In this document: positions 5,676-27,379 of the stretch, one piece after another
Layout: the number at the start of each line of letters is the position of its first letter
Numbering within the stretch: the first letter of the stretch is position 1
DNA from: Candidatus Uhrbacteria bacterium
Lineage (GTDB): Bacteria > Patescibacteriota > Patescibacteriia > JACQRZ01
Direction: 5' to 3'
Length of the DNA: 64,000 nt
NCBI GenBank assembly: GCA_016186045.1
Contig: JACPMJ010000005.1
Location: 7,143-71,142 of the forward strand
Program-made: the position numbers and the translations under genes
Notes under the pieces: model-generated
What the model saw: the letters and a program-made list of their open reading frames with translations, nothing else
Told to the model about the DNA's origin: nothing
The model's database searches: none

Positions 5676-5815
5676 AGGAGTGGGATAGTCTGTTATTTGG
5701 GCTTTTTTATTGTATCTGATATAATAAATTTATCAAGGAAGGCGAAGTGGATGAATAGTGGATGAAATACTTGATATTTTTTGGTTATTGTGGTGTAATA
5801 CTGGCATTGTGATAT

Positions 5816-5888
5816 GCGCCCATAGCTCAATCGGCAGAGCAACAGCCTTTTAAGCTGGTGGTTGAAGGTTCGATTCCTTCTGGGCGCA
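5816..5888 (+). tRNA. tRNA-Lys (anticodon UUU)
   Basis: Cloverleaf: acceptor GCGCCCA/TGGGCGC, D-arm TAGCTCAATCGGCAGAGC, anticodon loop CTTTTAA, T-arm GGTTCGATTCC, discriminator A; no encoded CCA. Confidence 0.85.
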
Positions 5889-5962
5889 GAATTGCGTCCC
5901 AAACGTTTTTTGAAAATAAAAAAAGCCGCAATAGCTTGTATCACGGCGTATAAGACTGGTTC

Positions 5963-19020: not shown

Positions 19021-19030
19021 GTGTCATGTC

Positions 19031-19698
19031 GTTTTTTGACAACATGGCGCACCACATAAGCCGAATTCTGTATCCATCATCCGCCTCCGCCAGTTGGCGG
19101 ATAGCGGAGGTGGATGGTGACCATCACTCTATCTTCATGATTACCCATGAAGTATTGCGAGCGTCTATTGCTCTTGCATCTGGTAGGTGTTTGCCAAGCT
19201 GACACATCACTATGCCACTGGTGCGCTCTTACCGCATTTTGCATATTCTTTTTTAACTAGGAGAGTTTAAAGAACGATTTTGAATATGCAAGTATTTATT
19301 TGCGTCAACCCTTATTCGGGTATCCACACCATTTCACCCTTACCCATAGCCATCGCCTGGGCGGTATGTTGTTTCATTCAAATCATCCAAATGAAACCTT
19401 TGCGCATTCGCAAAGCTTTTCTGTTGCTCCCCTGTTTCTGAAAAATCAGAAACAGCGAAATTTGGCTCGTAAAAACCAAGACACTATCCCGTATGCCAGT
19501 CCCCTGCTTTTTTGAATAAGAAAAGGGTATTCCCCTCGTCTTGATCACATAAAAAAGAAAGAAAAAGCCATAGGTCGCTGTTAGCGACTACCCTGTTGTC
19601 CGGCAGTGCCGGACAGATGTTCGGACTTTCCTCCCCTGAATATGGAAATATATCCATTTCAAGGGCGATCACCGTGGTGCGCCATGTTGTCAAAAAAC
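19031..19698 (-). ncRNA. rnpB: RNase P RNA (bacterial type A-like, about 670 nt with large insertions)
   Basis: Minus strand carries GGGGAGGAAAGTCCGAAC (P4 5' strand), GCAACAGAAAAGC, GGGTAAGGGTGAAATGGTG, GCGGTAAGAGCGCACC, ACAGAATTCGGCTTA (P4 3' strand); ends form 25-bp perfect helix (19031-19055 / 19674-19698). Confidence 0.8.
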
Positions 19699-19755
19699 AG
19701 TATGAGATTACTATAGTACTATAGAGAAGAAAAGTCAAGGATGTGAAAAGAAAAA

Positions 19756-19839: not shown

Positions 19840-21666
19840 TTACTTGAGATTTTTTACGATCTCTTCAAGAATATCTCCGAAATTGTTCAGGCAGTCCTCC
19901 ATGGTACTGAACAAAAGTTCGGTGGGATAGATATGCGGAGTACCGTGAACCCCAATGAACATGTGAATGACGATAATGCCGGACTCCTTGAGCTCACGGG
20001 AGATTCGCGCCGCGAGCTTCAGGTCATCCGGACCGTCATCGCAGAGCATGATGAGAACTTTACGCTTTCGCTTTGACTCGCGTAGTTTTTTTGCGGCGAC
20101 CGTGAGCATGTGCGTATCCGAGTTCCCATCATCCGCGCTAATGACAACGAATGACGGGAACTTACTGGGAGGGCCGTAATCGTAGATGATTTTTGAATTG
20201 AACGCCCAGATGTTTCCCGCACACACCGGATGAAGCGCCATAATCGCCTCAGAAAAGAGAACGGCGATTTGTTTTGCTTGTTCTATCTTCTCCCCAGCCA
20301 TGGATCCGCTTCTATCAATGCAGAGATGAATCTCCGCATCAATATTTCGCTCTTCCACGATGTCTTTTAGAAATCCGGAGAGGCCTGTTGCGATGCGTGC
20401 GACCTCTCGAGTATCCAGCTCCCCCTCGTCCTGCCCATAGAGGATGTATTCGGAGGGATTTTCGAGACGCTTGAGCTTTCGCACCAGCGGCTCTACAAGA
20501 TGTTGGACCGAAGCAAGAATGCGATTATACGCGGGAGCGTGAACGCCATTTCTTGGAATGCTTTTGACGGGAACCGTATCTTCCCTGCCTACGGAATGTG
20601 GTCCGCGCGGATACGCGGCGCGCATACCTCTCATCCACTTGACGAGATTATTGAGCGCCTGATTTCTTCCTACTTTGAGAGTTCCTGCCATGATTGCATT
20701 GAGATTTCCAAGGAGTGCGGGATCCAGTGGCTCTCCCATCTCAATACTCGCGGCCAAGAGACAGAGCGCGATGAACTTTTGTTCAAATTCCTTGCGAAGA
20801 TTTTTGAGATTCTGACTCTTTCCCTGTTCCTTTTCTTTTTCATCAGGATCGCCAAGAATCGCGTGGATTTCTTGGGCGGCCCAGAGGAGATAGTCCGGTG
20901 TCGCAGTGAGAAGAAGTTTCGGAGAGATCAGTTTCATCGCCTTATGCACCTTCCTGATGCGCGGGCGCTTGTGCCACTTTGCCGCGAAGAAAAAATCTTC
21001 ATAGGCATCAGTTGGTTTCCAATTCCGAAGAATTAAGGTGATATGCGCCTCTCCTGTTTTTTGCGTCGAAAGGTTTCGAGCGCTCCGAGAGAGATTCTTT
21101 TTCTGCTTTTCTTTTTTTGCCGATATTTTCGCGTGGAGGGGTTTCGGATGCTCTGTGTTTCGTATGTATGTTGAGAGTATTTGCGCAAGGGTTTGTCTGC
21201 GCGCCATCGTGGAGACATAGGCGAGACGCCTACGCAGTGTACTCGCAAATCCCGGCGCATGGCCTGCGGTTAGGATATCATCTTTGCGATCAAGGATGAT
21301 ATTGGTGATATGTTGTAAGATATCTCCGCCAAAGTCGTACGCCTCTGCAAGAAGTTTTGTCCCATAAGGGGAAAACTTGATATGACCGCTCTCATGATAG
21401 CCGGTTCCAAAACCGACCTCCTCATGTCCTTCAGTGAAAAACCATGGAGAGATACGTACCTCGGCGATGCAATCCGTACTTGCGGTCGGAATACTTGCAT
21501 CAAAGATAAGCCGGAACGGCTTACCGATAAGCGCGGTAAGGTGATCACAGAGAATCGGAAAGACGCGTTCAAGAATCTTTTTATCCCGTTCTTCTTTTGG
21601 AAGTGCGGCCTCTATCGCCACATCCATCTGATCAAGGGTATCTTGAATACGGGAAAAAGCGTTCAT
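19840..21666 (-). CDS. von Willebrand factor A (VWA) domain protein, CobT-like architecture (about 430-aa unknown N-terminal region + C-terminal VWA)
   Basis: MIDAS motif LCIDRSGSMAG, VWA beta-alpha pattern in C-terminal third; last gene of RT-ATPase-VWA module. Confidence 0.8.
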   Translation of the reverse strand: MNAFSRIQDTLDQMDVAIEAALPKEERDKKILERVFPILCDHLTALIGKPFRLIFDASIPTASTDCIAEVRISPWFFTEGHEEVGFGTGYHESGHIKFSPYGTKLLAEAYDFGGDILQHITNIILDRKDDILTAGHAPGFASTLRRRLAYVSTMARRQTLAQILSTYIRNTEHPKPLHAKISAKKEKQKKNLSRSARNLSTQKTGEAHITLILRNWKPTDAYEDFFFAAKWHKRPRIRKVHKAMKLISPKLLLTATPDYLLWAAQEIHAILGDPDEKEKEQGKSQNLKNLRKEFEQKFIALCLLAASIEMGEPLDPALLGNLNAIMAGTLKVGRNQALNNLVKWMRGMRAAYPRGPHSVGREDTVPVKSIPRNGVHAPAYNRILASVQHLVEPLVRKLKRLENPSEYILYGQDEGELDTREVARIATGLSGFLKDIVEERNIDAEIHLCIDRSGSMAGEKIEQAKQIAVLFSEAIMALHPVCAGNIWAFNSKIIYDYGPPSKFPSFVVISADDGNSDTHMLTVAAKKLRESKRKRKVLIMLCDDGPDDLKLAARISRELKESGIIVIHMFIGVHGTPHIYPTELLFSTMEDCLNNFGDILEEIVKNLK

Positions 21667-21728
21667 GGAGTTCTCCTTTCATTGTGAAAAGTTGTCAAAG
21701 ATCTTTATGGTTATTGTAATCCTTTTTT

Positions 21729-21845
21729 AGGGAATAGAGGGTGTCATCCTGAGTGATAACGAAGGATCCCGTTGGTATCATGTTTTTAACATCGGGATTC
21801 CTCTCCGCCAGCTGGCGGATCGGAATGACATACATAGTATTCCCT
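21729..21845. repeat. A-type palindromic element copy 1 (GTCATCCTGAGTGA...GGGATTCCTCTCCGCCAGCTGGCGGATCGGAATGACATACATAGTATTCCC)
   Basis: Right 49 bp identical (1 mismatch) to 38451-38499; core CCGCCAGCTGGCGG 21805-21818. Confidence 0.8.
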
Positions 21846-22062
21846 AAAAAAGAGGGGGAACGAACGTTTTTCATTCCCCGTGGTGGAGAGGTTGGATATT
21901 TGATGGGCTGCCCCGTAGCCGGTATTCCCGCGATCGGGAATACCGTGCCGAGCCCTCGCGTTCATCGCGAGGGTGAGGGGGCCACGCTTACCCTGTTTGA
22001 CCGCAGACTCCCTGATTCTGGTACAGAATCAGATCAGCGTCCACGCAAAAGCGTATGCAGTA

Positions 22063-22116
22063 GGGTCACGTCTAAGGTGACCTACCTTTTTCGCATAGTG
22101 CAAAACGGTCAAGAAA
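22063..22116. repeat. B element copy 2 (GGGTCACGTCTAAGGTGACCTACCTTTTTCGCATAGTGCAAAACGGTCAAGAAA)
   Basis: About 90% identical to 23592-23646; contains hairpin GGTCAC-GTCTAAG-GTGACC; lies just 3' of ATPase gene. Confidence 0.7.
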
Positions 22117-22183
22117 TATCCAATGCGCCGTCTGGTACAAACGGCTCTCCCCTGTATGTGATGTGAGAAAGAAAGTTTAGAGA

Positions 22184-23341
22184 TTATGGAATCTTCATGG
22201 TAAGAGTGGCAAACGCCTTCGCCGCCTCTGTCCCGGACTTCACATCGATGGTTCCATCCTTCAAAACTTTAATGTCGGATGAATACTTATCAAGAAGTCC
22301 TCGCACGACCGCGAGTTTGAGCTTCCATCCTCCGAGCATGAGGCGCGCGGTGTTTCTGCATCCGCGATAACTCGGGGCGTATGAGATAGCGCCGGAATGC
22401 GCGAGATCGCGTATTGCTCGTGCGACCTGCACGATTGCGAGCGCGGCGCGTTCCGAGATACCCACCTCATCCTTGAGTTTTTTCACCTCGAAGTCCTCCG
22501 GCATGGACTCCACCCAAATGAATCCAAAACGATCCTGAAGAGCGGTGCCGAGAGAGAAGACGTCTTGATGCTGTGCGCCTTGATTCATGGTCCCGATGAA
22601 GTGAATATTCGGCGAGAGTCTGATCGTAACACTCCCGTCGGTCGTAGTAATAGCAATTTGCCCGGTGTCATCAAAAAGACCGTGCATACCCTGATGCGAC
22701 TTTTCATGGATGCGATTGATCTCATCCAAGATGACGAGGAAGTGCGTGTTCAGTCCTTGAGCGTATGCGATATTCGCCCGCTCTACGTAATCTGCAAAGG
22801 CGGACTTGACAAACTTTGTTGATGCATTCACTGCGGCATCGGATCCAAACATGTCGTTGCCATGCTTGATCGTCTCAATGTCCACCTTGCAGGGTTCTTG
22901 CCAGTGAAGGGCGTGAGCCACCGCATAGCCAAGGGTCGTCTTTCCGCTTCCCTTATCACCGAGAAGGATGACGTTGGTTCCATTGTTCAGCCAGTTCAAA
23001 AGCTGGCTCAACATAAGTGGATCGGTCCAGTGGCCAGGCAATTCTTTGATCTTTTGCCAGTCCGCAAGCTCCGTTTTTCTGGAAATAAGTCGCACAAACG
23101 ATGTACTCGTTCCCTTGCGACTTTTTTCTTGTCGTTCAAGTTCAACATGCCAAATATCACCATCATTGACGGCAACATTTGTCTGGTTTATCACCTGAAT
23201 CGCGGGAGGAATGTCATATTCCTCAACAAACGAAAGACAAGACACACCCTGTTCGGTGGTATGCGCTCGGGCAAGAAGTAAGTCCGCCATTATGTATCCA
23301 TCCTTTCTTTCTGTATCTTTGTAAAAGTACGGTTCCTCCAT
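22184..23341 (-). CDS. AAA+ ATPase, MoxR/CbbQ/NirQ/CobS-like, with about 110-aa N-terminal extension
   Basis: Walker A GDKGSGKTT, Walker B FLVILDEINR, sensor region IGTMNQG, arginine-rich C-terminal helical lid. Confidence 0.85.
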   Translation of the reverse strand: MEEPYFYKDTERKDGYIMADLLLARAHTTEQGVSCLSFVEEYDIPPAIQVINQTNVAVNDGDIWHVELERQEKSRKGTSTSFVRLISRKTELADWQKIKELPGHWTDPLMLSQLLNWLNNGTNVILLGDKGSGKTTLGYAVAHALHWQEPCKVDIETIKHGNDMFGSDAAVNASTKFVKSAFADYVERANIAYAQGLNTHFLVILDEINRIHEKSHQGMHGLFDDTGQIAITTTDGSVTIRLSPNIHFIGTMNQGAQHQDVFSLGTALQDRFGFIWVESMPEDFEVKKLKDEVGISERAALAIVQVARAIRDLAHSGAISYAPSYRGCRNTARLMLGGWKLKLAVVRGLLDKYSSDIKVLKDGTIDVKSGTEAAKAFATLTMKIP

Positions 23342-23359
23342 TTCAGATTATTAGACTCT

Positions 23360-23490
23360 GTCATTGCGAGGGATCCGCCTCCGTCTCCGCCAATTGGCGG
23401 ATGGCGGAGGTGGAAACCGTGGCAATCCCAATTAGAGATCCCTCGTCCCTCGGGGGTACTCGGGATGACATTACTTCGCTCGGGATGACA
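23360..23490. repeat. A-type-related palindromic element in reverse orientation (GTCATTGCGAGGGATCC...CCGCCAATTGGCGG...CTCGGGATGACATTACTTCGCTCGGGATGAC)
   Basis: Core CCGCCAATTGGCGG 23387-23400; reverse complement of 3' end equals GTCATCCCGAGCGAAG start of A-type element. Confidence 0.7.
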
Positions 23491-23591
23491 CACGGCGACT
23501 TTGATCCTATGGCGCAAGAAATGTTTTGTAAAGAAATGCTTGCGCGGATGGGATTTCCATTTGATCGAGGACGGCTTGATCAGATACGGTT

Positions 23592-23646
23592 GGATCACGT
23601 CTAAGGTGACCTACCTATTTCGCATGATGCAAAACGGTCAAGGAAA
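23592..23646. repeat. B element copy 1 (GGATCACGTCTAAGGTGACCTACCTATTTCGCATGATGCAAAACGGTCAAGGAAA)
   Basis: Immediately 3' of RT stop codon (23657-23659). Confidence 0.7.
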
Positions 23647-23656
23647 CTGGTATTTT

Positions 23657-24901
23657 TTATTTGAAAGGAATGGACTCGTCCGCAGTATCCTTCTTCTTGC
23701 GACTTCTGCGCCGAGGTGGCTCCTCGGTGGCAATCTGTGTTTCCGCCGAAGTTTCCGAAGTTTGCGGCTCTGGAGTGACAGCAGTCGTTTTCTTGCGTCT
23801 GCGCGGTTTCTTACCTAACTCTCCGGCAAGCTCATTGAACTTGATGGTCTTGAGCTCGGTTTCGGCTTTTTCCGTAATAGCACGAACCTTGCTTGGGAGC
23901 TTGTCAGAATAGATATGGCGAAGATAGCCGATAGTGCCGGCGATCTCTCCGTATACCTGTTTGGTGGGCTCCGCCTTGATGACCGCGAGGAGCTTGTTGA
24001 TCCTCGCGCGGAACTGGTTTAGCTTGTTTGGGGCAAGCGTAATCCGTCCGTCCGGAGCCAAAACGATTCCCGTGATCACTGGTACTGCTCCGGTTTTTGG
24101 AGTGAAGTACTTCGTCTTGTCTTTCCGTTCATGAGGAAAAAATCCATTCTTTTTCATGACGGCAAGAATCCTCTTTCGGAGCTCCCCGGGAATTTCTTCC
24201 TCAAAGGAGATCGTGAGATCATCGCACCATACCGTGATGCGATACTCCTGAAGCGGTGTGGAGTTTTCCGAGATCAGCTTCCAGATATCCTGATCCATCT
24301 TACAGCAGACGATATCAAGGATGCGTGGACTGGTCGGAGGGCCTTGCGGGAGACGGTCATGGAGACAGACGAGATCCACGAGAGACTCGAGCATCTGTTT
24401 TATCTCTTCCGCCTCGAATGTCTGTCCGGAAAATTGCTTCAGCGCAAAGGTGAAGGGTTTGCGAAGATTCGCGCGGATCCTACTCCGATAGACACTGGGA
24501 AAGGCGTTCACAATGTCGATCGAAAAGGCTCGCTCATTTCCCGCGTGGTGCTCTGCGTTTGTCTTCACACTGCACCCTCGCTGGTTCCCGTGCCTGCAGA
24601 AATGTACCGGAATGGAAATTAGAAATCTGTTAAGGATCTTTCGCTGGACGCTTTTAAGTTCATCACAGGGAGCCGCATAACGTCGTACTCCTCTGCCCGG
24701 CCCCTTTGATTCCGCCCACTCGCGGTATGCCGCCTTTTGACGAAGCTTGTCGAGACAAAAATCCCACTCCTGCGTGGAGAGATGAAGCAAGAGTCGTAAA
24801 ATTCGCGCAAGTCGTTCTGGAAGCTCCAGAACGCTCTCGAAATCCTTGTACACCCATTCTTTGGGCGTATGACGCCGACGCCGACGTGTTGAAGTCGCCA
24901 T
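23657..24901 (-). CDS. reverse transcriptase, retron-type/retron-like
   Basis: SKGPGRGVRRYAAP (motif 1), NAEHHAG (NAxxH), FSIDIVNAFPSV (motif 2), LPQGPPTSPRILDIV, VWCDD catalytic box (YADD variant), KTKYF, VITGIVL (VTG); 130-aa C-terminal extension with basic tail. Confidence 0.8.
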   Translation of the reverse strand: MATSTRRRRRHTPKEWVYKDFESVLELPERLARILRLLLHLSTQEWDFCLDKLRQKAAYREWAESKGPGRGVRRYAAPCDELKSVQRKILNRFLISIPVHFCRHGNQRGCSVKTNAEHHAGNERAFSIDIVNAFPSVYRSRIRANLRKPFTFALKQFSGQTFEAEEIKQMLESLVDLVCLHDRLPQGPPTSPRILDIVCCKMDQDIWKLISENSTPLQEYRITVWCDDLTISFEEEIPGELRKRILAVMKKNGFFPHERKDKTKYFTPKTGAVPVITGIVLAPDGRITLAPNKLNQFRARINKLLAVIKAEPTKQVYGEIAGTIGYLRHIYSDKLPSKVRAITEKAETELKTIKFNELAGELGKKPRRRKKTTAVTPEPQTSETSAETQIATEEPPRRRSRKKKDTADESIPFK

Positions 24902-25050: not shown

Positions 25051-25111
25051 CCATATTTCAAAGAAACTATGGGTGTTTGAACGTTTCCTGCTTTACTCTA
25101 TCACTTCTTTA

Positions 25112-25537
25112 TTATTTTGTCAAGACCAGATGGGCATCTATCGCCATATTTACCAGCATATCCGCCTCCTTGTTTTTTTCACGAAAAATATGAGTAAATG
25201 TTATTTTTTTGAACTTTTGTTTAAGATTCCAAATTTTTAAAAATAATGGGGCGAGATTTTTATCCTTGACACGGTATATTCCATGGAGTTGTTTTACGAC
25301 AAGCTCGCTGTCTAAATAGCACCACACCTCCTGCGCATCCATCTCGTGCGCGCGCTCGAGCGCATACACCAGCGCTCGGTACTCCGCCTGATTATTTGTC
25401 GTCTCACCGATATATTTTTTGAAATGATGTTTTTCTCCTGTTTCTTTATCTTCCAAAACAATGCCGATGCCGGCGGGTCCGGGATTTCCCCGCGCGCCGC
25501 CATCGGTATGAATGATGAATGTTTTTTGATGAGACAT
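25112..25537 (-). CDS. rnhA: ribonuclease HI
   Basis: IHTDGGARGNPGPAGIGIV...NNQAEYRALVYALE...DSELVVKQ catalytic DEDD pattern. Confidence 0.85.
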   Translation of the reverse strand: MSHQKTFIIHTDGGARGNPGPAGIGIVLEDKETGEKHHFKKYIGETTNNQAEYRALVYALERAHEMDAQEVWCYLDSELVVKQLHGIYRVKDKNLAPLFLKIWNLKQKFKKITFTHIFREKNKEADMLVNMAIDAHLVLTK

Positions 25538-25560: not shown

Positions 25561-25604
25561 GTCATCCGCCATCCACCAACTGGCGGAGGCGGACAGGAAT
25601 GACA
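25561..25604. repeat. palindromic family member (GTCATCCGCCATCCACCAACTGGCGGAGGCGGACAGGAATGACA) overlapping recJ stop codon
   Basis: Encodes the last residues RLRQLVDGG and stop of RecJ on minus strand. Confidence 0.7.
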
Positions 25605-27379
25605 TTTTTAGATAAACGCAGATCAATAATTTTCAGCTGAAGTTCTTTCGTCCCGTTCCATTCATTCGTGTCTAATTCAACTACCACATCTATACTGCTT
25701 CCCGTCTGGATTTTTTCCAACCACGAACCGAATGAAAAACCGATGAGTTTTTTTTGTATACCATCTTGCTGGACGGTGAGACGGAGGTGTTTATTCTCTT
25801 TTCCCACACCTTGCATGCCCAGAACATGGATATCGGAAATAAGAAATAATGGCTTTGGATTACCGTTTCCAAATGGCTCAAATTTTTCCAATTGTTCAAA
25901 AAAATTCCAAGTGAACTGGGAAAGTTTCACTTCCGCATCTATGGAAAGAACCGGAATACGGTCGTTGTCCTGAATCATCTCATCTCCAAGGCGCTGGAGT
26001 TCACGCTTGACCTCCTCGCAGTCCACGCCATCCGTGACTGCAAATCCTCCGGCCGCCTCATGTCCTCCATAGCGATCAAAAAAATGGCTCAACTTTTCAA
26101 ATACGCGGGCGAGATGAAATCCGTTCATGCTTCTGCCGGTGCCCGCGACATGACCTTCATGCGCGCGTGTCATAAGAATAACCGGCCGATGGTATTTTGA
26201 TGATATTTTTCCCGCAACAAGTCCCAGGATACCCAGTGGCCAATCGTCTCCAATTGCCACAAAAATTTTTTTATCTGCACAAATATCTTCTCTAAGTTGT
26301 TCCTCTACCGCGGCAACAACGCGATCGGTCGCCTTTCTGCGTTCAACATTGCTCCTATCAAGACGCTCGGCAAGTACGGCTGCTCGCTGGGGATCTTTTT
26401 CCGTCATGAGAAAAAAAGCAATCGTGCCATGTGTCATGCGGCTTGCCGCATTGATCCGTGGACCAAGCGCGAAATTGATCGTCTGTGTCGTAATTTTTTT
26501 ATCGGAAATATTCGCAACGGTGAGAAGTTTTTGAAGACCACTTCGTTTTGTTTTGTTCAATACGATCAGGCCGTATCGCACAAAAAGTCTATTTTCCCCA
26601 ATCAATGGTACGCAGTCACAAATAGTCGCCATACAGACCGCGTCAAGAAGCCATTTTTCAAAGCCCTCCCAATGGATGGGTTTTCCAGTATCATCAGTGA
26701 CGTTTTTTTTCTTTTCAGAAAAATCAGAGTCAAAATCCGCGCGAATAATCCCCTGTACCAATTTGAATGCCGTTCCCGCGCCCGCAAGATGTTTGAAAGG
26801 ATATCTGTCTGCGCGTACGCGAGGGTGAATGATGGCGTACGCGGACGGAATATCTTCTTCTTTCTCCGGAACATGATGATGATCGGTAATAATGACATCC
26901 ATTCCGAGATCATGCGCGTAAGCAACCTGCTCTTTATTTGATATGCCATGATCATTTGTGATGATAAGTGCAGTTTCATCCGCAGCGAGTTCTTTGATGG
27001 CATCCATCTGTAATCCGTATCCCGCTTTTTCCCTATGGTTCATGTGCACGTGAATACGATCCGTAAAAAGGGAGAGAACCTCATATAAAACGGTTGATCC
27101 ACAGACGCCGTCCACATCATAATCCCCATAGATAGTGATCTTCTCTTTTTCTTTGATCGCGCGTATGATACGCGCCACCGCGCGTTGCATATCGTCAAAG
27201 AGATACGGATCGTGCACATCACGCGCATAGTCAGGTTCAAGAAAGGCGCGTATCGCGCCTTCGTTTTCTATTGAGATGTTTCTGTTCGCTAAAAGTTGGA
27301 GAATAAACGGATCGATATGGGGATATGTGTTGCGTGTTTCTTCATCAACCTTCTGTGCGAGTATCCAGCGTTTTTCCAT
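25562..27379 (-). CDS. recJ: single-stranded-DNA-specific exonuclease RecJ
   Basis: DHH motifs ITIYGDYDVDGVCG, ITDHH, DHH-associated DHHA1 region GGHEAAGG. Confidence 0.85.
   Translation of the reverse strand: MEKRWILAQKVDEETRNTYPHIDPFILQLLANRNISIENEGAIRAFLEPDYARDVHDPYLFDDMQRAVARIIRAIKEKEKITIYGDYDVDGVCGSTVLYEVLSLFTDRIHVHMNHREKAGYGLQMDAIKELAADETALIITNDHGISNKEQVAYAHDLGMDVIITDHHHVPEKEEDIPSAYAIIHPRVRADRYPFKHLAGAGTAFKLVQGIIRADFDSDFSEKKKNVTDDTGKPIHWEGFEKWLLDAVCMATICDCVPLIGENRLFVRYGLIVLNKTKRSGLQKLLTVANISDKKITTQTINFALGPRINAASRMTHGTIAFFLMTEKDPQRAAVLAERLDRSNVERRKATDRVVAAVEEQLREDICADKKIFVAIGDDWPLGILGLVAGKISSKYHRPVILMTRAHEGHVAGTGRSMNGFHLARVFEKLSHFFDRYGGHEAAGGFAVTDGVDCEEVKRELQRLGDEMIQDNDRIPVLSIDAEVKLSQFTWNFFEQLEKFEPFGNGNPKPLFLISDIHVLGMQGVGKENKHLRLTVQQDGIQKKLIGFSFGSWLEKIQTGSSIDVVVELDTNEWNGTKELQLKIIDLRLSKNVIPVRLRQLVDGG

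Follow-up and report, generated by a model that had tools for sequence, protein, structure and literature searches.

What is the function of a short sequence that stands twice in one bacterial genome, each time directly behind a gene of the same module? We asked this of a 64,000-nucleotide stretch of a Candidatus Uhrbacteria genome (contig JACPMJ010000005.1; hereafter the window), in which an element of about 55 nucleotides, the B element, follows both a reverse transcriptase (RT) gene and the gene for a MoxR-type AAA+ ATPase. An original prediction, drawn from the letters of the sequence, offered a structured non-coding RNA (ncRNA) or template, an internal promoter, and a processing or termination signal as possible roles, and this interpretation is partly supported here. 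The B element is the 5' third of an RNA of about 230 nt whose helices covary across many loci, in favor of the first of these roles. It thus belongs to a larger unit than had been recognized, and its two copies are not equivalent. The RNA has a defined architecture and is strictly associated with genes for an RT, in part an RNase H, a MoxR ATPase and a protein with a vWA domain and an HExxH motif. We consider it probable, with considerable room for doubt, that the B element is the msr-like 5' domain of a repeated ncRNA gene in a retron-type RT module specific to bacteria of the Candidate Phyla Radiation (CPR), and that this module is a new retron variant whose RT reverse transcribes variable hairpins.

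The repeated element is the 5' part of a covarying RNA

A repeat search of the window returned one direct-repeat family of 62 nt (copy 1, 23584-23645; copy 2, 22055-22116; both on the minus strand) with 87% identity. Across the 54-55 nt delimited originally, the copies differ at 5 positions (~91% identity), and the claim of two roughly 90% identical copies is thereby borne out. The element had also been said to occur nowhere else in the window: the 50-nt IUPAC consensus given for it is found exactly only at 22063-22112 and 23592-23641 on the minus strand, and in none of 100 dinucleotide shuffles, and the 21-mer GGTAGGTCACCTTAGACGTGA is confined to the same two places even when 3 mismatches are tolerated. 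The reported spacing holds as well, with copy 1 about 10 nt past the stop of the RT open reading frame (ORF), which ends at 23657, and copy 2 67 nt past that of the ATPase ORF, which ends at 22184. The complementary arm that precedes copy 1 begins just 6 nt beyond the RT stop.

A hairpin GGTCAC-N7-GTGACC had been described in each copy; it is exact in copy 2 and altered at one pair in copy 1. As minus-strand RNA, this second hairpin reads GGUCAC/GUGACC in copy 2; copy 1 has GGUCAC/GUGAUC, which retains a G·U wobble. The plus strand of copy 1 would carry GATCAC/GTGACC with an A·C mismatch, so that only the minus (gene) strand allows the structure to form as RNA. In six copies from three genomes, conservation of the B element is strong: the loop CCUUAGAC is invariant, and the outer pair of hairpin 2 switches between G-C, G·U and C-G in a compensatory manner, a pattern that fits a putative protein-binding site. 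Using the two window copies as nhmmer queries gave just weak matches in distant loci, because the 5' domain is locus-specific.

The whole unit is bounded by two complementary arms. Arm a1 is variable and ends in GUUU(U/G/C); it is followed by a C, the hexamer UUGA(C/U)C and 2-3 small hairpins of locus-specific sequence. The B element comprises the a1-proximal UUGACC, noted as TTGACC in both copies by the original prediction, and the first two of these hairpins. Next comes a conserved core with an outer helix, made up of GYUGUUUGAGC (internal loop GUUUGAGC), a 9-bp hairpin and nGAGGYUGCGGUC (with GCGGUC). The 3' part consists of 86-208 nt of long hairpins, (C/U)AUC, the arm a2 that complements a1, and usually a GC hairpin with a U-run. 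The long hairpins differ between the units of one array, while the units of one locus have conserved 5' hairpins and a conserved core.

We scanned one genome per species and obtained 15 loci (L001-L015). A covariance model of the core has at least 60 matches in them, on the RT strand and between the RT and vWA genes, apart from two marginal matches at chance level (E 0.39 and 0.54); in all, more than 80 matches are placed in this way. The inner hairpin of the core is 98.7% paired in 62 sequences, with compensatory changes at 7 of its 9 pairs, and the 3-bp outer helix, which lies outside the search model, is 97.7% paired, with compensatory changes at all 3. When 15 whole units of 10 loci are aligned by plain MAFFT, RNAalifold predicts an 11-bp a1/a2 helix and the core hairpin. 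The arms are 96.4% paired (slid controls, 32-46%), and 9 of the 11 pairs have changed on both sides. As an independent check of position, 25 of 46 units have the best complement of a1 within 420 nt starting directly behind the conserved ATC, compared with 4.7% for shuffled a1 (p ~1e-21). In single-sequence folds, a1/a2 closes with z near -7 for the unit of the window and for two foreign ones. Covariation across homologous loci, part of the analysis that the original prediction had proposed, strongly supports a1/a2 and both core helices.

A metagenome-wide scan for the core pattern yielded 17 stretches, and the model matched none of them except those that also encode RT, RNase H, AAA or vWA genes, which makes the RNA specific to the module. 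Neither in the window nor in four array-rich loci did the units match an Rfam family at the gathering score, and a relaxed search (E up to 5) of 21600-23700 gave no meaningful match.

Some units have diverged. Anchoring by regular expression failed for L003, L008 and L014. In L003 (8388-13682), TCGCTC or TTGCTC replaces TTGACC, and a1/a2 and the core are kept; in L014 (9846-11052), the units have 60-73-nt repeats of their own, no UUGAC anchor and no match to the core model. In many variable regions, a short motif is repeated 4-8 times, counting both orientations (about 2 times in shuffles), among them L005 9627-9895, L007 6201-6405, L013 9900-10140, L002 9163-9382 and L004 8923-9186. These motifs (ACGTGA, CGGTAC/GGTACC, CCAAGC, CGTTAC, CTGACA) differ between the units of one array and could be binding or modification sites put on display. 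The variable region of the window unit contains no such repeated motif. A spacer-like reading of that region was rejected from a search of the window, phage collections not included: neither of its two hairpins has another copy there.

The window holds one intact unit and one remnant

Copy 2 lies in an intact unit (unit 2) and copy 1 in an internally deleted remnant (unit 1; Table 1). The minimum free energy (MFE) fold of unit 2 closes a1/a2 with z = -7.1, and the core model matches it with 45.4 bits (E 9.5e-9) at 21993-22041, its sole true match in the window. The unit is conserved in L016 and L018, which are close relatives of the window locus. Unit 1 has no match to the core model, and as a mini-unit it folds weakly (z = -1.7). 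A full unit with core follows the RT gene in both L016 and L018; alignment with these shows that the core and variable region of unit 1 are gone and that its a2 has decayed from ATCGAAACTGG to ATCAAATGG.

Two additional structures adjoin the units. Directly upstream of the a1 of unit 2, the minus strand carries a hairpin GCCGUUUGUACCAGACGGC (22127-22145), which is kept in L016 with a compensatory change (GCCA...UGGC) and absent from L018; a 5' leader or a site of processing are possible roles. The ATPase gene is separated from unit 1 by, among other sequence and outside the RNA unit, a palindromic insertion resembling repetitive extragenic palindromes (REP) or miniature inverted-repeat transposable elements (MITE). 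It contains CCGCCAATTGGCGG and GTCATCCCGA, motifs that are dispersed through the window.

Table 1 Features of the RT module and its surroundings in the window.
Feature	Position	Strand	Evidence or remark
ncRNA unit 2, intact, with B-element copy 2	21892-22123	-	Core match, MFE fold, relatives
Unit 2, a1	22123-22114	-	TTGGATATTT
Unit 2, TTGACC	22112-22107	-	
Unit 2, hairpin 1	~22105-22087	-	
Unit 2, hairpin 2	22082-22064	-	
Unit 2, core	22041-21993	-	
Unit 2, variable hairpins	21992-21905	-	
Unit 2, ATC	21904-21902	-	
Unit 2, a2	21901-21892	-	AAATATCCAA
Intrinsic-terminator-like hairpin and U-run ending unit 2	21846-21879	-	Terminator scan: GGGGAATGAAAAACGTTCGTTCCCC, then CTCTTTTTTA
ncRNA unit 1, degenerate remnant, with B-element copy 1	23557-23650	-	Alignment with L016, L018
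Unit 1, a1	23650-23643	-	CCAGTTTC
Unit 1, TTGACC	23641-23636	-	
Unit 1, hairpin 1	~23634-23617	-	
Unit 1, hairpin 2	23611-23593	-	
Unit 1, ATC	23565-23563	-	
Unit 1, decayed a2	23562-23557	-	AAATGG
REP/MITE-like palindromic insertion	23358-23490		Absent from L016, L018
vWA (MIDAS) protein, 608 aa	19840-21666	-	N-terminal domain with invariant HExxH
MoxR-type AAA+ ATPase	22184-23290 (ORF open to 23341)	-	Pfam AAA_5 5e-10, CbbQ_C 1.4e-4
Retron-type RT, 414 aa	23657-24901	-	PADLOC, NCBIfam, PDB, motifs
RNase H (RVT_3/RNase_H), directly upstream of RT	25112-25537	-	Pfam RVT_3 4.5e-23, RNase_H 1e-13
RecJ	25562-27379	-	

The RNA accompanies a retron-type RT, a MoxR ATPase and a MIDAS protein

One Candidatus Uhrbacteria protein matches the window RT with 100% identity. 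Judged by its sequence, the RT is retron-type, in a family comparison that covered families other than UG38, a small CPR-borne UG/Abi group. Its best PADLOC match is RT_XIII (3.6e-36), followed by RT_VI and RT_II-A, and all 25 matches listed are retron RTs. In NCBIfam it matches retron_St85_RT (3.7e-38), and its sequence matches in the PDB are all retron RTs (Ec86, the best at 2.7e-12, Ec67, Ec78, St85, Kva2 and Ec83). The motifs NAxxH (region X) and VTG (region Y), hallmarks of retron RTs (PMC7736814), occur in it as TNAEHH and VITG and are conserved across 27 family members. The catalytic residues D129, D227 and D228 are present, with WCDD as motif C (residues 225-228); across the family, the motif A Asp and the first Asp of motif C are invariant.

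The ATPase most likely starts at 23290 with MADLL, where its homologues also begin. Its Walker A and B motifs are conserved, and its best PDB sequence match is the AAA part of midasin. The adjoining gene encodes a protein with a C-terminal vWA domain and an invariant MIDAS motif (DxSxS), and the two genes thus form a MoxR-vWA pair. In the AlphaFold2 (AF2) model (pLDDT 86), the vWA domain is structurally closest to NorD and the MDN1 (Rea1) MIDAS domain. The N-terminal domain has no Pfam or PDB sequence match, and its invariant HExxH sits, in the predicted model, on a helix after a small sheet. The motif and this layout suggest a zincin-like peptidase; the assignment draws on these two features, since the vWA domain dominated the outcome of either fold search. 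A Ro/TROVE-like reading of the protein was dropped, as neither Pfam nor the fold searches supported it.

The RT has about 80 homologues, and the source names given are those of CPR lineages. The records of L002, L003, L005, L010, L013 and L014 bear the title "uncultured Gammaproteobacteria bacterium", a label that may be a placeholder or an error; L004, L012 and L013 stem from RIFCSP/RIFOXY groundwater and similar samples. The vWA family is roughly as large as the RT family and shares many contigs with it. By tblastn, the order RT–(RNase H)–AAA–vWA is found in 12 of the 12 loci with enough downstream DNA, and in all at least 20 related loci keep it. In several relatives, RNase H is fused to the RT or encoded directly behind it. 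Synteny with the window extends from MreB to a sugar transferase in the closest relatives, L016/L017 (RT 83%) and L018 (RT 71%).

In relatives, the gaps between the RT and AAA genes and between the AAA and vWA genes measure 0.2-3 kb and are filled by direct repeats of 220-390 nt. A locus has 1 to ~10 units, located after the RT and after the ATPase and always on the RT strand. Most units in relatives are followed by GGGGAA...TTCCCC hairpins equivalent to the terminator of unit 2. At three places in L004 (9178-9215, 9448-9484 and 10132-10168), the units abut, with a2 giving way at once to the next a1 and no terminator hairpin between them; parts of arrays may therefore be co-transcribed and then processed.

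A proposed retron-like route from RNA to DNA

The msr-msd topology of the RNA, the retron-type RT and the linkage to RNase H together suggest that the variable region is reverse transcribed. The RT would bind the conserved 5' domain and core, prime on the 2'-OH of the conserved G just past a1, and copy the variable hairpins starting from the AUC beside a2. The product would be a retron-like RNA-DNA hybrid resembling msDNA (multicopy single-stranded DNA), in which the linked RNase H may trim the template. Fusion or adjacency of RNase H in a subset of loci argues that RNA-DNA hybrids really are made. By analogy with remodelling by NorQ-NorD and by the Rea1 ring with its MIDAS partner, the MoxR ring and the MIDAS/HExxH protein may bind or remodel the particle of RT and nucleic acid, as effector or as sensor. 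Such a function would probably lie in phage defence, and in the relatives with arrays one RT would produce several different cDNAs. A more far-reaching form of this proposal, which we put forward tentatively and which may well fail, is a new retron type confined to CPR/Patescibacteria: one RT would serve natural tandem arrays of up to ~10 different msr-msd-like units, yielding an msDNA library in which many members show a short repeated motif of their own, and the RT-DNA particles would be sensed or remodelled by partners coupled to the RT, namely a MoxR AAA+ ring and a MIDAS/HExxH protein.

Several observations weigh against this assignment. Reverse transcription, branching at the G and msDNA are all predicted from sequence. 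The units lie downstream of the RT and the ATPase in several copies, in place of the one co-transcribed ncRNA per RT, usually upstream, of described retrons. The conserved G of UUGACC stands 3 nt past a1, not at the end of the stem, and in the centroid fold it may pair with GCGGUC. It is conserved in nearly all units; unit 1 of L018 has TTAACC. The hexamer is also altered in the units of L003. The window RT scores below the NCBIfam cutoffs for the retron families, and motif C, in the RT alignment, reads W/Y-x-D-N in about half of the family and W/Y-x-D-D in the other half. Two of the alignments also favor the pairings reported for them: the core alignment (A3) was fitted to the inner hairpin of the search model, and the ends in the whole-unit alignment (A9) were picked by complement search, which favors a1/a2 pairing.

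Alternative explanations

The D-N form of motif C would be accommodated if the RNA is real and is never reverse transcribed, serving instead as a scaffold or regulatory RNA in a ribonucleoprotein (RNP) that an RT-like protein forms with the MoxR ring and with the MIDAS protein, comparable to Y RNA-Ro or to the remodelling of pre-ribosomal RNPs by Rea1/MIDAS. We find this unlikely, yet it deserves serious attention: the vWA domain is closest to NorD and to the Rea1 MIDAS, both partners of remodelling AAA+ rings, and reverse transcription of the RNA is itself a prediction. Its difficulties are the invariant Asp of motif A and first Asp of motif C, the full D-D pair of the window RT, and an RNA topology that is that of a retron template. 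In addition, the vWA protein has no TROVE-like match, and the RNase H that many members have within or beside the RT would serve no purpose unless RNA-DNA hybrids are produced. If the RNA is a template, paired ends could also permit rolling-circle or repetitive cDNA synthesis as in the defence-associated RTs DRT2 and DRT9, giving a concatemeric gene or a homopolymer and not msDNA. Both the way in which a1/a2 bring the template ends together and the separation of the ncRNA from the RT ORF agree with such a scheme. We nevertheless rate it improbable, for the variable regions have no bias towards multiples of three (10 of 33), many lack an open frame on either strand, stable hairpins dominate them, and among the matches listed the RT matches retron models, not DRT models.

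The remaining explanations concern the element as DNA or as a signal. TTGACC is a good match to a -35 box and a gene lies downstream of each copy, so that duplicated promoters or operators might drive the ATPase and vWA genes. Since a1, upstream of TTGACC, covaries with a2 about 200 nt downstream, the sequence upstream of the hexamer lies inside the RNA, which argues against the internal promoter of the original prediction. Relatives have no conserved -10 box 17 nt past TTGACC or elsewhere at 16-18 nt, a stretch taken up there by the variable hairpin region; the promoter scan of the window does not list the TTGACC sites; a terminator separates unit 2 from the vWA gene; and arrays of up to ~10 units would be senseless as promoters. 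We regard promoters as very improbable, and give just as little weight to terminators, RNA processing sites or a dispersed REP/MITE-type repeat. The position of both copies directly 3' of genes, a plus-strand T-run behind hairpin 2 of copy 2 (which we take to be an artefact) and the abundance of REP-like palindromes around the locus might have suggested one of these. On the gene strand, however, no U-run follows the hairpins of the element, so that processing or termination is not supported for the element itself; the terminator-like hairpin is at the 3' end of unit 2 (21879-21855), outside the B element. There is no plus-strand gene there to terminate, the element occurs just twice in 64 kb, it keeps a constant position and strand within the unit in relatives, and REP elements differ from it in sequence. 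Two similar repeats beside an RT also recall a template repeat and a variable repeat, as in a diversity-generating retroelement (DGR), the commonest RT type in CPR bacteria (PMC8632793). We give this virtually no credence: both copies are intergenic, hence neither is in a target gene, their 8 differences are mixed (G/A, A/G, A/T, G/A, T/A, A/G, G/A, A/G) and not adenine-specific, the RT is retron-type and no Avd-like gene is present.

Comparison with known systems

Retrons, classified into types I-XIII by Mestre et al. 2020 (PMC7736814), share with the module an RT with NAxxH and VTG whose best matches are retron RTs, paired ncRNA ends, and close linkage of the RT to accessory genes; the G conserved just past a1 in nearly all units may correspond to the branching G that retrons have at the 3' end of a1. 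In the predicted folds of three units, short hairpins come first and long, variable hairpins last, as in retrons, where an msr with 1-3 short hairpins precedes an msd with one or two long, variable ones. The module departs from them in its accessory MoxR AAA+ ATPase and vWA/HExxH protein, found in none of the 13 types (PMC7736814), in an ncRNA that lies downstream of RT and ATPase in 1 to ~10 units per locus instead of one, in the extra conserved core of GUUUGAGC, hairpin and GCGGUC, and in its CPR hosts. PADLOC matched neither the ATPase nor the vWA protein to a retron effector and returned no Septu-like match. Type I-A retrons (Ec78/Eco7: RT, PtuA ATPase and PtuB HNH) likewise place an ATPase gene and a second accessory gene beside a retron RT, but PtuA is ABC/SMC-like and paired with a nuclease, whereas the ATPase here is of the MoxR/midasin AAA+ type and paired with a MIDAS protein.

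The AAA_5 and CbbQ_C domains and the neighbouring vWA gene with intact MIDAS resemble NorQ/NorD, CbbQ/CbbO, CobS/CobT and the Rea1 AAA ring with its MIDAS partner. In contrast to those, the pair is linked here with an RT and an array of ncRNAs and not with a metalloenzyme or ribosome assembly, and its vWA protein has a novel HExxH N-terminal domain. DRT2 and DRT9 also place an RT beside a structured ncRNA with a template region; the RT here belongs to another, retron-like clade, and neither a coding nor a repeat signature is seen in its template region. Engineered retron arrays ("multitrons", PMC10370050) have one RT and several msr-msd units as well, but are synthetic constructs, whereas the arrays here would be natural.

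Searches of the literature on retrons together with Patescibacteria, CPR, MoxR, vWA or arrays returned no description of such a system and only the engineered arrays. AAA and MoxR/vWA are absent from the retron classification paper (PMC7736814), we found no paper linking retrons with MoxR, and the paper on MoxR-vWA conflict systems links MoxR-vWA proteins to DGR RTs only. The least expected feature is the natural ncRNA array. Every retron described to date has, to our knowledge, a single template RNA. If the arrays are what we propose, one RT would be able to service many templates, which suggests multiplexed sensing with different DNA hairpins as baits and perhaps a ready-made scaffold for multiplex retron genome editing. 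The module would also become the first system of retron type to be attributed to CPR bacteria, in which most RTs are regarded as DGRs, and would tie MoxR-vWA remodelling machines to reverse-transcribed nucleic acid. For annotation, some 0.3-3 kb of "empty" intergenic DNA in small CPR genomes would be accounted for.

Other sequence features around the module

The REP-like palindrome CCGCCARYTGGCGG, often flanked by GTCATYCCGA, has 9 copies in the window compared with 0.06 expected (19087, 19798, 21805, 23387, 25573, 38460, 50600, 55312 and 60151). Five of these surround the RT module, including one in the insertion beside copy 1 and one between unit 2 and the vWA gene. Two promoter-like sites lie on the minus strand: TTGACA-17-TAGAGT with an extended TG (25095-25123), at the end of the RNase H gene and upstream of the RT, and TTGCCA-18-CATAAT (22183-22212), at the end of the ATPase gene and upstream of unit 2. 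In L016 and L018, the second is kept only in part. A gap of 820 nt with no long ORF separates the vWA and sugar transferase genes; it contains a 32-nt inverted repeat (19024-19055 and 19674-19705) whose arms are 91% complementary and 618 nt apart. The sole RNA gene identified by Rfam or ARAGORN in the window is a tRNA-Lys (UUU) at 5815-5889.

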